DNA from: Escherichia phage teqhad
Direction: 5' to 3' (one strand)
DNA length: 64,000 bases
Sequence record: NC_054933.1
In this document: piece after piece, positions 4,054-14,838 of the stretch
Layout: the number at the start of each line of letters is the position of its first letter
Numbering within the stretch: the first letter of the stretch is position 1
Notes under the pieces: generated by a model
Databases searched by the model: none
What the model was told of the DNA's origin: nothing
What the model saw: the letters and a program-made list of their open reading frames with translations, nothing else
Position numbers and translations under genes: made by a program

Positions 4054-4380
4054 TCAATTAGAAAATAAATTTATCCAAGATTGTTCTTTAATTAAAAATG
4101 GCTCAGAATCATATGCCATTAAACTTTGGGTGATTAGTCCTTTAAAAGGTCCATCAATAAATTCCATGGTAAAATATGGAATTTTATTCATTAACTGTGC
4201 GTTAGGAGCAGTGCACAAAACTCTGCATCCTTTGAATACACCTTTTTGTAATTTGTATTGCTTGGGATAAAATTCGCTTAAAATGTTGTTATTTGCCAAA
4301 ATTTCAAAATGATTTACCAATTTATTTTTAATAGTTTTTGGCGAAAAATAGAGATATTCGAAAAGCTGTGTGTCTGTCAT
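4054..4380 (-). CDS. hypothetical protein (start set at MTDTQLFEY)
   Basis: ORF track 4054..4434; internal ATG overlaps the stop of the upstream gene (TAATG). Confidence 0.4.
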
Positions 4381-4967
4381 TATTGCATTCCGATTACGAA
4401 AAACTGTGGACGAGTAATACCACCAATGCAACATTTACTATTACAGCAGTAGTGTACAGTGTCAATATGGACGCTATAAATCTTATCCATATCAGGAGAT
4501 TTGACAGGCTCATCAATTATATACAAAATTCGCGAAAGCGATAAACCTCTGAACTTGCTTCCTTTATTACCAATAAAACTGCGTACAGAATCAGTAAATA
4601 AACGAAAACGTATATCATCATTAGAATAACGCGAAAATTCCTTTTTAATGTTATTTGCAGAAATTTTAGCGTAAGCTGAAGTATTAGAAAGAACAATAAC
4701 TGTTCCGCCATCATACAGCCAATTAGCAGCAAAGTTAGTCACAGCAATTGATTTACCAGATTGACGTCCACCATCTATACGAAGTGTGCAGTACTGTTTA
4801 AGTAATTCTTCAAATGGCGGGATATATTCGTTTTTACAAATTTCTTCTACTCTAGCATCAGAATGGTGTGTAAAAGCATTCATCAGGGATAGATAAGGAC
4901 CAGTTAAAAATGTTCTCATTTTATTCTCTCTAAATTTGGGCCATTCCATGGCGCATGAATTGTCCAT
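4380..4967 (-). CDS. hypothetical P-loop-like protein
   Basis: GGRQSGKS Walker-A-like motif and ILYIIDEP Walker-B-like motif; probable true start at MRTFLTG. Confidence 0.5.
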   Translation of the reverse strand: MDNSCAMEWPKFRENKMRTFLTGPYLSLMNAFTHHSDARVEEICKNEYIPPFEELLKQYCTLRIDGGRQSGKSIAVTNFAANWLYDGGTVIVLSNTSAYAKISANNIKKEFSRYSNDDIRFRLFTDSVRSFIGNKGSKFRGLSLSRILYIIDEPVKSPDMDKIYSVHIDTVHYCCNSKCCIGGITRPQFFVIGMQ

Positions 4968-5060
4968 TTCTGTATTTACCCATTACCGCACTCAGGCTCG
5001 ACCTTATTACAGGTTGGCGGGAATCCCTCATAGAATCATGAGGTCCAGGCTGTTCCCATA

Positions 5061-5534
5061 TTATTTGAACGATTTAACGTACTGAATAGAACCTTTACTA
5101 TTTACAAAGGCAATTTTACCATTTTTATTATACATGGTAGCAGTACGTTGATAACCATAAGTTTGTTTACCAGATTGATAACCAACTAATGCGAAATTAT
5201 CTTCGCCCATTTTATTCTGTTTAGCGCGAATGCGTTCATGACCATGTGCCATAAGAACCTTAGCATCACCGGTTGCAATGGATCTACGAGTTTTTTCATC
5301 TTCAACTGTATTAACAAAGTCGTCAAATGAATCAAATTTAGCATGAGATTTATTATACAGTTTTCCATCTACTGCATAATTATATCCCTGTACATCCATC
5401 TCAACTTCTGTACCATCATCCAATACAGCAGTGATTTTTTGACCTTTTTTAAATTTCAAAAGATCAGTAAAAGATTCAGCAATAATTTGAGAATTAATAG
5501 CTGCTTCAGTGATAAATTCTTGATATGTTTTCAT
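5061..5534 (-). CDS. internal protein (IP) family, capsid-targeted
   Basis: N-terminus MKTYQEFITEA matches the conserved T-even IP capsid-targeting sequence with ITE|A and IAE|S gp21-type cleavage sites. Confidence 0.65.
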   Translation of the reverse strand: MKTYQEFITEAAINSQIIAESFTDLLKFKKGQKITAVLDDGTEVEMDVQGYNYAVDGKLYNKSHAKFDSFDDFVNTVEDEKTRRSIATGDAKVLMAHGHERIRAKQNKMGEDNFALVGYQSGKQTYGYQRTATMYNKNGKIAFVNSKGSIQYVKSFK

Positions 5535-5543
5535 ATGTTTCCT

Positions 5544-5960
5544 TTAAATGTAAATATTTTTACCGTAATACTTATACCAATGTGGTTTCATTAAAATTTT
5601 TTCATCAAGTCGTTGTTGACTCAATTTAATAGCTGATTTGCATGGATTATAATCATTTTTCCATTCTACTGGAATATCGCTGATGTCAGGAACTTCAGTA
5701 TCTTTTATACTGAACCCTCGTTTTAAGCATTCCGTTATAATGTCTAATTGACGCTTTCGCAAAAATTCTAACTTATCGTAAAAGAACGTAACATGGCCAG
5801 AACCTAAAATAAACTCGGAAGATATTTTAAAATCTTTAACGCGCTTACCATTTGCCACATGCTTACGAACTATACCAAAAACACGTGGCAATTCACGATA
5901 TTCTGCAATTAAATGCTGATCAGTAAGTTCAGATACTAAAGTCAAATTAATACGAGTCAT
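5544..5960 (-). CDS. denV: endonuclease V (pyrimidine-dimer DNA glycosylase)
   Basis: 138 aa, [12 protein letters not shown]...WYKYYGK, matches T4 DenV as recalled. Confidence 0.9.
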
Positions 5961-6019
5961 TTTATCCCTCCAAATAACTGTGAATATACTATCACAATTC
6001 TAGGAGAAAGTAAACAACT

Positions 6020-6988
<969 letters not shown>

Positions 6989-7007
<19 letters not shown>

Positions 7008-10594: not shown

Positions 10595-11068
10595 TTATTT
10601 GATTTGTTTAGCAGACCAAATGCGATCTTTAATAATTTTTTGGATGTCTTCAACATACTCTAGGTCATGAGCATGTGGATTATCTTTGAAACTATGAGCT
10701 CGCGCAAGTTTCTGGCCTTCGGTCTTAATTATCAAAAGTTCTTTAAGAATTGCTTCATACCTAGAGATAATTCCTTTAGCAATATTTTTTTCTTGTGCTG
10801 CTTTAGGGTCAGCCTTAGGAGCAGGTTTACCTGAAGCCTTTGCAAAAGCAGCTCCAGTAGCAACTAAACTTTTCCAGGCCATACTAACTGCATTTCCCGT
10901 AAATCCTTCTGCTTTCATGTCGCGAGCAAATTGGAATCGTGATTCATCAGAAGCATCTTTATAGGAATATTTACCCGCTGCAATGGCTGCTTTTGCGACA
11001 GCTTGAATTTCGGTGCTAAACGCTTCATTTAACACCGCTTCATTTAAAAATTGAGTATATGATTTCAT
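10595..11068 (-). CDS. internal-protein-like protein with a divergent capsid-targeting N-terminus
   Basis: MKSYTQFLNEAVLNEAF resembles the IP CTS MKTYQEFIAEA; Ala- and Lys-rich body. Confidence 0.55.
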   Translation of the reverse strand: MKSYTQFLNEAVLNEAFSTEIQAVAKAAIAAGKYSYKDASDESRFQFARDMKAEGFTGNAVSMAWKSLVATGAAFAKASGKPAPKADPKAAQEKNIAKGIISRYEAILKELLIIKTEGQKLARAHSFKDNPHAHDLEYVEDIQKIIKDRIWSAKQIK

Positions 11069-11118
11069 CTTATTTCCTGTTTTAATTTGTAGATTTAATA
11101 TACTTATTTATACTAAAA

Positions 11119-14586: not shown

Positions 14587-14838
14587 TTATTTTTTACGAA
14601 AAATTGATTTATATTTATCAGCCCATTTCTCGATGACTTTTTCTGGTCCATAGATAACAAAATAATCACCAAACTCTTCACCACCGAGTTGACCGAAATT
14701 ATCTAATGCATCACGAAGAACTCCATGAGGCATTTCGCCCATTTTATCTTTCTTACCAATGTAAATAAACTCAACTTTTACATCAGCAGCTTCAGCAATA
14801 AATTCTTGATACGTTTTCATTTTATTCTCCAATTTCAC
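14587..14838 (-). CDS. ipI: internal protein I (IPI)-like, capsid-targeted, with a divergent effector domain
   Basis: Internal ATG gives MKTYQEFIAEA, an exact IP capsid-targeting sequence; position next to 57B parallels T4 ipI; the mature part is unlike T4 IPI as recalled. Confidence 0.7.
   Translation of the reverse strand: MKLENKMKTYQEFIAEAADVKVEFIYIGKKDKMGEMPHGVLRDALDNFGQLGGEEFGDYFVIYGPEKVIEKWADKYKSIFRKK

Follow-up and report, generated by a model that had tools for sequence, protein, structure and literature searches.

The open reading frame at positions 5061 to 5534 of the analysed DNA of Escherichia phage teqhad (the window, that is, the whole stretch of 64,000 nucleotides from record NC_054933.1) is, judged by its sequence, ip4, an internal protein gene that had already been named in T2-type coliphages. 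The e-denV-ip4 arrangement in which it stands is a common variant of a known gene-shuffling hotspot, real but ordinary. Overall, the explanation that we favour, and regard as likely, is that Ip4 is a packaged, gp21-processed and injected anti-defence protein whose gene takes part in cassette shuffling at its locus. The coordinates of the features discussed below are collected in Table 1.

Gene identity and order at the e-to-vs.8 locus

The ORF listing of the window contains an ATG-initiated frame on the minus strand that encodes 157 aa with the N-terminus MKTYQEFITEAAINS, which bears out the 157-aa product starting with MKTYQEFITEA described in an earlier, sequence-only reading of this DNA. 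The product scores 319.4 bits (E 5.7e-96) with Pfam family PF24183 (DUF7412), whose cut-off is 27, and the alignment is full length, residues 1-157 lying on profile positions 1-158. It also matches PHROG 3155, 'internal virion protein' (E 6e-102). T2 ipIV, RB32 Ip4 and Yersinia phage PST ipIV are each 100% identical to it in amino acid sequence by tblastn, and K3 Ip4 (UniProt Q38388), a match from the BFVD structure search, is 99% identical. Ip4/ipIV of T2, K3, RB32, RB70 and PST belong to the same family (PF24183 DUF7412 / PHROG 3155) as the window protein, and the length, the capsid-targeting sequence (CTS) and the e-to-vs.8 locus of Ip4 in T2, RB32, PST and K3 are all the same as here. The gene, its name and its annotation (T2, RB32, PST and K3 Ip4/ipIV) are already known.

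Ip4 is encoded in 469 of 50,697 phage records searched by tblastn, 289 of them at an identity of at least 99%. The ip4 copies of phiD1, T2, RB32 and teqsoen differ from that of the window by 1 to 17 nt each, and all of these differences are synonymous, with no amino acid change. These comparisons show that ip4 is a conserved protein-coding gene under purifying selection; the Pfam and PHROG matches and the synonymous-only differences rule out a chance reading frame at 5061-5534.

The sequence-only reading took the N-terminus for a capsid-targeting sequence and placed ipII and ipIII of T4 between denV and e. The first 11 residues do match the N-termini of T4 IPII and IPIII (MKTYQEFIAEA) at 10 of 11 positions, and the leader plus CTS is 94-95% identical in nucleotides to those of T4 ipII and ipIII. 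In addition, the frame lies within the e-to-vs.8 interval that holds these two genes in T4. One could therefore ask whether it is simply ipII or ipIII in the standard position, the T4 order having been given wrongly, but this is practically out of the question. The T4 record reads vs.8-denV-ipII-ipIII-e, as in that reading, whereas the window reads vs.8-ip4-denV-e; since the two orders differ, the frame is not ipII or ipIII in the standard position, and the description of an internal-protein gene in a non-T4 position holds. No CTS-bearing ORF was found between denV and e in the window. In BLASTP, only residues 1-13 of Ip4 align with IPIII, that is, nothing beyond the CTS, and the alignment with IPII is weak: it spans 77 residues, the CTS among them, at 31% (E 7e-7 when just the two sequences are compared) and depends on the common N-terminus. 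The frame belongs to a separate Pfam and PHROG family and is named Ip4 or ipIV in T2, RB32, PST and K3. Ip4 as an orthologue of T4 IPII or IPIII was thus rejected, the mature parts not being similar and the Pfam and PHROG families being different. What the three proteins share is the e-to-vs.8 locus, a near-identical leader and CTS, an I-x-E↓A site and a basic pI; what separates them is that the mature sequences are unrelated and that ip4 lies on the other side of denV. The earlier placement of the frame 'upstream of denV' stands for the lower window coordinates and fails for transcription: all genes here are transcribed leftward, so the ORF is downstream (3') of denV.

In the direction of transcription, the order is e-ipIII-ipII-denV-vs.8 in T4, e-denV-ip4-vs.8 in this window and in phiD1, e-ip4-vs.8 without denV in T2 and RB32, and e-denV-IP105-ip4-vs.8 in teqsoen and many others, IP105 being an extra 105-aa CTS gene found in close relatives of the window phage. 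In T2 and RB32 ip4 directly follows e because denV is absent there; in the window, by contrast, a divergent denV allele stands between e and ip4. The gap from the denV stop codon to the ip4 start is 9 nt, and ip4 is the last gene of the variable e-to-vs.8 segment. Of the two intervals that define the internal-protein loci of T-even phages (e-to-vs.8 and tRNA-to-57B), ip4 thus occupies the first, between e and vs.8. As this is the same locus that holds T4 ipII and ipIII, the arrangement represents reshuffling in a known hotspot and not a new location. In other genera Ip4 is likewise found in an e-to-vs.8-type interval: the order is e-ip4-ipII in Klebsiella Jiaodavirus 311F, and in Salmonella Gelderlandvirus STML-198 ip4 and then another internal-protein gene lie behind a gene that aligns with e.

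The denV-ip4 junction occurs in 163 records that cover at least 80% of a 221-nt junction probe, a count that also takes in genomes with an additional IP105 cassette, as split matches were joined. The best 30 matches to the 3.1-kb region comprise 11 that are colinear with the window and 19 that have an insertion of ~330 bp. A CTS gene across denV from ipII and ipIII is therefore nothing new, the gene being already named and the Ip loci being known variable hotspots. Comeau et al. are also said to have described the variability of internal-protein loci in 2007, and variability of the internal-protein repertoire is discussed in PMC12373910 (citing Repoila 1994) and PMC3012670.

Three CTS-type ORFs were found in the 64-kb window, namely ip4 and the ORFs at 10595-11068 and 14587-14820. 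The second ORF has an exact late promoter motif at 11105-11112, and the third is taken to lie at a putative ipI-equivalent locus. The e-to-vs.8 locus lies in the window, and the ORFs on the tRNA side suggest that the second Ip locus does too. Homologues of T4 IPI, IPII and IPIII and of Ip5, Ip7, Ip9 and IP105 were not found in the 64-kb window. Three CTS-type ORFs in a window with none of these homologues make the reading of a rearranged and variable injected-protein repertoire, which had been drawn from the sequence, correct.

Table 1. Features of the ip4 region and other CTS-type ORFs in the window
Feature	Position	Strand	Basis and remarks
vs.8	4380-4967	-	ORF, Pfam and PHROG annotation; followed by vs.7 and GrcA-like vs.6
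Region downstream of ip4, equivalent of the T4 denV-vs.8 junction	4968-5060	-	T4 homology restarts after the stop codon; structure z -0.28
ip4 CDS, 157-aa precursor	5061-5534	-	Stop codon 5061-5063; ORF, Pfam, PHROG, identity to named orthologues
Folded mature domain (about residues 25-157), predicted	5061-5462	-	Beta-hairpin, three helices, four-stranded beta-meander (AlphaFold)
Linker, codons 11-20	5475-5504	-	Ends in second motif [I/L/M]-x-E↓[S/A] (IAE↓S); E20 conservation, motif scan
Leader-plus-CTS segment, 49 nt, putative recombination linker	5499-5547	-	blastn blocks against teqsoen overlap exactly here
CTS, codons 1-10, MKTYQEFITE	5505-5534	-	Ends in gp21-type motif I-T-E↓A; 10/11 match to IPII/IPIII, motif scan
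ip-gene leader, conserved	5535-5562	-	Shine-Dalgarno AGGA 5540-5543; overlaps last 19 nt of denV
denV (endonuclease V), divergent allele	5544-5960	-	Pfam Pyr_excise, PHROG 1183; directly upstream of ip4 in the transcription unit
e-denV intergenic cassette	5961-6019	-	Early-promoter-like GTTTAC ... TAGTAT and overlapping PeSL-like stem-loop; fold
e lysozyme	6020-6514	-	ORF, Pfam and PHROG annotation
Two exact T4 late-promoter motifs TATAAATA upstream of e	6528-6535 and 6541-6548 (6528-6548)	-	Pattern search
nudE	6552-7007	-	ORF, Pfam and PHROG annotation
Second CTS-like ORF, 157 aa, MKSYTQFLNE↓A	10595-11068	-	95% identical to RB32ORF133c; PHROG 2280, unknown function
Third CTS ORF, 77 aa, MKTYQEFIAE↓A, pI 5.8	14587-14820	-	PHROG 8111 'internal virion protein', E 1.8e-50

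Cassette boundaries and transcription

Breakpoints were located by pairwise blastn and from the raw junction sequences of the window against T4, T2, RB32 and teqsoen. Relative to T4, homology of 95-96% stops at 5971, downstream of e, and restarts exactly at the ip4 stop codon at 5061, from where window positions 5061 to 4026 match T4 L002 positions 4943 to 3900 at 95.5%. On the other side, window 6600-5971, which spans the e-denV cassette, matches T4 and T2 at ~96% over the segments from e up to the point just ahead of ipIII and ipIV, respectively. The denV gene matches T4 denV at 77% (in nucleotides over the 5' 294 nt, in amino acids over the full length), against 95-96% in the flanks. The segment that T2 and RB32 lack is essentially the denV ORF, from about 5550/5561 to 5960/5970.

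The ip genes of this locus share the sequence that heads them. Positions 5503-5562 (60 nt, leader and CTS codons) are 95% identical to the leader plus CTS of T4 ipII, and positions 5503-5549 (47 nt) are 94% identical to that of T4 ipIII. The last 18 nt of the window denV (AAAAATATTTACATTTAA) are identical to the leader preceding T4 ipII and RB32 ip4, and in the alignment a TTTAAAGGAAACATATGAAAACATATCAAGAATTTAT block heads the ip genes of the e-to-vs.8 locus in different phages. The window and teqsoen are 98% identical overall, and their two alignment blocks overlap by the 49 nt of leader plus CTS, a stretch that is present twice in teqsoen as a direct repeat (before IP105 and before ip4) and once in the window. 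Such a difference in copy number is what unequal exchange by homology between direct repeats would leave behind. The boundaries of ip4 are accordingly this repeat (5499-5547) on one side and the stop codon on the other, and the order variants differ by precise cassette insertions and deletions bounded by the shared repeat of ~49 nt.

The mechanism that we propose is homologous recombination between the near-identical leader and CTS stretches of ~49 nt at the head of each ip gene. Such shuffling of cassettes, together with gain and loss of the denV ORF, would have brought ip4 to its non-T4 position and would account for the four tequatrovirus architectures, namely those of T4, of T2 and RB32, of the window and phiD1, and of teqsoen. 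Modular shuffling mediated by PeSL (promoter-early stem-loop) linkers has been described in T4-type phages (Arbiol et al. 2010, PMC2839356). Like this locus, PeSL cassettes have non-essential ORFs that lie between short, conserved linkers of a regulatory kind in a hyperplastic region, with the breakpoints of insertions and deletions inside the linkers. However, the repeated linker of ip4 consists of a Shine-Dalgarno leader and CTS-coding sequence and is not a promoter/stem-loop unit; the PeSL-like part of this region is the e-denV spacer upstream of denV, with its promoter-like sequence and strong stem-loop. Mapping of the breakpoints to the 49-nt leader-plus-CTS repeat is a small increment of the present analysis.

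ip4 is not preceded by a promoter-like intergenic region. On its strand, the nearest exact TATAAATA motifs are the pair before e, the closer ones being 1-mismatch variants, and a scan found no minus-strand terminator-like site between the late promoters of e and ip4. A dedicated late promoter or terminator for ip4 was looked for and rejected, the search giving only 1-mismatch TATAAATA sites and a downstream spacer with little structure (z -0.28). Since incorporation into the prohead needs late synthesis and ip4 lacks a late promoter of its own, late transcripts of ip4 would probably start at the two late promoters before e and run on through e and denV. This counts against the favoured explanation to some extent: there is no exact late promoter directly before ip4, and the read-through would have to pass ~1 kb including a stable stem-loop.

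That stem-loop lies between e and denV. Positions 5955-6025 on the minus strand fold with -22.2 kcal/mol (z -4.4), none of 200 shuffled sequences being as stable, and the structure also pairs with the Shine-Dalgarno sequence of denV. The overlapping GTTTAC ... TAGTAT element, which we take to be an early promoter from the T4 early-promoter consensus, may provide early expression of ip4 as well. A generic sigma-70 scan gave no more sites than in shuffled sequences and did not list the GTTTAC-type element, and therefore we infer the promoter from its motif.

Predicted propeptide and fold of the Ip4 precursor

gp21, the prohead protease, cleaves after the Glu of an (L/I)-x-E motif that is followed by A or S. 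Ip4 begins with a CTS of the MKTYQEFIxE type that marks the internal proteins of T-even phages, and at the sequence level it carries gp21-type cleavage motifs at residue 10 (ITE↓A) and residue 20 (IAE↓S). E20 is invariant in 13 close homologues, and its conservation is still 90% or more once distant ones are included; the second cleavage motif is kept in two of the three distant homologues. Both E10 and E20 are kept throughout the family, also by homologues of 34-36% identity with N-termini of the form MNFxxFLNES. The role of the CTS in capsid targeting is documented (PMC3012670, PMC9391042), and it brings proteins into the core of the T4 prohead, foreign ones included (PMC3012670).

These observations bear on the view that the CTS is a relic of recombination and that Ip4 is not packaged but works as an ordinary early protein of the cytoplasm. 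Such a view draws on the co-transcription of ip4 behind the early gene denV, with no exact late promoter of its own, and on the fact that the CTS-coding stretch doubles as a recombination linker. Yet the CTS and both cleavage motifs are conserved as protein even in the 34-36% homologues, whose DNA leader is unrelated, and in other genera too, and a CTS is sufficient to package even foreign proteins (PMC3012670); we consider a relic very improbable.

The Ip4 family is small. A search of 5.8 billion proteins gave only 14 clusters, none of them below 61% identity, and an exhaustive search returned seven matches among 1.84 billion representative proteins, three of which are genuine distant homologues (34-36% identity) and one a fragment. 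The distant homologues start with MNFEQFLNES, MNFKDFLNES and MVTFKEIYNS, which are variants of the CTS. One of them is on a 2.8-kb metagenomic contig on which all four ORFs have CTS-like starts, and this ties the Ip4 family independently to the internal-protein class. Another of the seven, an RTX/Ig-repeat adhesin, was rejected as a homologue, as it covers only a 20-residue beta-hairpin motif that occurs in eight repeats. Sequence searches of NCBIfam, PADLOC and PDB with Ip4 gave nothing above noise.

AlphaFold prediction from the 13 close homologues only gave a pLDDT of 50, and with the three distant homologues added it gave a pLDDT of 83.8 and a pTM of 0.78. Confidence is low for residues 1-20, with pLDDT below 50 for residues 10-18, and high for the compact domain of about residues 25-157 (pLDDT 84). 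A search for structural relatives of the domain in PDB and BFVD found none except K3 Ip4 itself, the sole BFVD neighbour (TM 0.96 to the window protein model). The model thus suggests an orphan fold behind a disordered propeptide of 20 residues, and a confident structure model with an orphan fold is the other small increment of this work. The mature protein is predicted to be of 15.5-16.5 kDa with a pI of 9.1-9.3 (22 K+R versus 17-18 D+E). Most of the invariant positions are G, K, N, Y or T, and an HGH motif is lost in the distant homologues.

Proposed role and significance

In the route that we propose, the CTS would take the Ip4 precursor into the scaffolding core of the prohead, gp21 would remove the first 10 or 20 residues, and the mature protein (~15.5-16.5 kDa) would stay with the packaged DNA and be injected with it. 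Internal proteins are known to be injected with phage DNA (PMC12373910, PMC9391042), and the packaging and injection route of T4 IPII and IPIII is, by analogy, probably the same for Ip4. From the sequence features and this analogy, it is highly likely that Ip4 is a packaged, processed and injected protein. No direct report of Ip4 in virions, or of its cleavage or injection, was found in the searchable literature, virion proteomics included, and nothing relevant to its function was found there either. T2 ipIV appears in one preprint only as a zero-mutation control locus.

Once injected, Ip4 would neutralise a first-response host nuclease, which by analogy may well be another GmrSD variant; this target is plausible but still tentative. 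Each of Ip1, Ip2 and Ip3 inhibits its own GmrSD-type type IV restriction enzyme without cross-protection, and the authors proposed that 'the two Ip loci' encode further GmrSD inhibitors (PMC12373910). IPIII that lacks the CTS is active in the cytoplasm of the host (PMC9391042). The prototype for the anti-restriction function proposed here is T4 IPI*, the inhibitor of GmrSD from E. coli CT596, a small injected protein that is processed by gp21 from a CTS-bearing precursor (PMC3012670; PMC12373910). Similarity of Ip4 to IPI*, Ip2 or Ip3, or to any other known inhibitor, was not found in sequence or fold, and IPII and IPIII, unlike Ip4, have demonstrated GmrSD targets (PMC12373910). The presence/absence polymorphism of Ip4 fits an arms race; against this, Ip4 is near-invariant in coliphages (289 records at 99% or more), unlike the rapid diversification often seen.

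A structural role, as basic proteins embedded in the packaged DNA, is the classical proposal for IPII and IPIII. Ip4 might similarly be mainly a structural or charge-neutralising head component with no specific host target. Its predicted pI is in keeping with this, and lysines of internal proteins contact DNA phosphates (PMC3012670); moreover, neither Ip locus of the window holds an IPII or IPIII homologue, so that Ip4 could replace them in bulk. However, Ip4 is missing from many T-even phages, T4 itself included, and is therefore dispensable for head function, and its precisely conserved globular fold and sequence exceed what charge neutralisation needs. As IPII and IPIII, earlier thought to be structural, also proved to be specific inhibitors (PMC12373910), we hold a mainly structural role to be quite unlikely.

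A stronger competitor accepts packaging and injection and departs from our favoured explanation in the target, which would be a non-GmrSD defence, or else in an activity other than inhibition. The fold of Ip4 has no relative among solved or viral predicted structures, so nothing ties Ip4 to GmrSD. The family is tiny, with its seven matches in 1.84 billion representatives, and conservation of Ip4 in phages from other genera that infect Klebsiella and Salmonella points to a target of wide distribution. On the other hand, all three characterised proteins of the Ip loci target GmrSD variants and the same is predicted for the rest (PMC12373910), and no catalytic motif is conserved in Ip4. We give this alternative a minor though appreciable chance. 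Within it, the lack of a PDB or BFVD relative and the few database matches mean that the orphan-fold Ip4 could be an injected inhibitor of a non-GmrSD or still-undescribed host defence system, a version to which we assign a slightly lower chance. If it were true, the near-invariance of Ip4 in phages of E. coli, Shigella, Yersinia, Citrobacter and Serratia would reflect a conserved host target, and the e-denV-ip4 arrangement would place the genes of a DNA-repair enzyme and of an injected anti-defence protein in a single transcription unit.

Packaged, processed and injected anti-defence activity, with cassette shuffling at the locus, remains the reading that we prefer. Of all phage proteins, the internal ones are the first to encounter the host cytoplasm. 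Ip4 is widespread (469 records) and highly conserved, with no report of its function found, and it is therefore a reasonable choice for the next search for targets in therapeutic T4-like phages.

Candidate internal proteins beyond Ip4

Two further open reading frames of the teqhad window begin with a capsid-targeting sequence (CTS) or a CTS-like N-terminus. The 77-aa product, an acidic protein with a pI of 5.8, has a match in PHROG 8111, "internal virion protein" (E value 1.8e-50). Its position is taken to be the ipI-equivalent locus; the product resembles T4 IPI at the N-terminus, but is unrelated to it past that point. The other ORF encodes a product with a pI of 9.4, whose CTS-like N-terminus contains two motifs of the type cleaved by the prohead protease gp21. 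This product is 95% identical to RB32ORF133c, which is annotated as "hypothetical" and is flanked by a 34 bp imperfect direct repeat, and the family to which it belongs, PHROG 2280, is described as of "unknown function". The ORF looks like an internal protein gene unrecognised in annotations.

Features of the teqhad window discussed in this part
Feature	Coordinates	Strand	Description
T4-type vs.8 start	5031 (region 4968-5035)	-	conserved; ATG AGG GAT TCC = MRDSRQPV
denV	5544-5960	-	divergent allele in Ip locus
e-denV spacer stem-loop	5955-6025	-	fold -22.2 kcal/mol, z -4.4
CTS-like ORF, 157 aa	10595-11068	-	N-terminus MKSYTQFLNE/AVLNE/A
Late-promoter motif	11105-11112	-	exact, TATAAATA; 36 nt upstream of the CTS-like ORF
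CTS ORF, 77 aa	14587-14820	-	exact T4 CTS, MKTYQEFIAE/A

By tblastn, no homologue of T4 IPI, IPII or IPIII, nor of Ip5, Ip7, Ip9 or IP105 (a 105-aa CTS gene of relatives such as teqsoen), was found in window positions 1-64000, and teqhad appears to lack IPIII. Among the internal proteins of T4, three in number, IPIII is the largest.

Distant matches to Ip4

A distant Ip4 homologue (36% identity) is encoded on a Logan contig, ERR14707364 (positions 1-2794). All four ORFs of this contig, in which both orientations are represented, have CTS-like N-termini (MNFEQFLNES, MNFQRFLNEA, MSFKKYLDEQ and MKFSEFLNES), and the contig is a cluster of internal-protein genes from a phage using a variant targeting sequence. 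In addition, the Ip4 profile search of representative proteins matched a giant RTX/Ig-repeat adhesin-like protein of 1879 aa, in which eight repeats align with profile positions 36-55 (E = 2e-6; LQDGTEIEASVTGYDKAGN against LDDGTEVEMDVQGYNYAVDG). This match probably reflects a common beta-hairpin motif rather than homology.

Variation on both sides of ip4

At its 5' end, vs.8 is prone to indels. In the window, the frame of the conserved T4-type start does not run on into the long vs.8 ORF (4380-4967). The annotated lengths differ (219 aa in T4, 189 aa in RB32 and 179 aa in phiD1), and the ORF found at this position in T2 is just 110 aa long. Meanwhile, the strong stem-loop of the e-denV spacer overlaps an early-promoter-like GTTTAC/TAGTAT, an architecture resembling that of the promoter-early stem-loop (PeSL) cassettes. 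In the predicted fold, the denV Shine-Dalgarno sequence base-pairs within the stem-loop, which could possibly control denV translation on read-through transcripts.

The denV gene itself is only 77% identical between T4 and the window, whereas the DNA on both sides is 95-96% identical. T2 and RB32 have no denV ORF, and the absence is precise; moreover, the last 18 nt of denV in the window are identical to the leader preceding T4 ipII and RB32 ip4. Therefore, denV behaves like a mobile cassette in the Ip locus.
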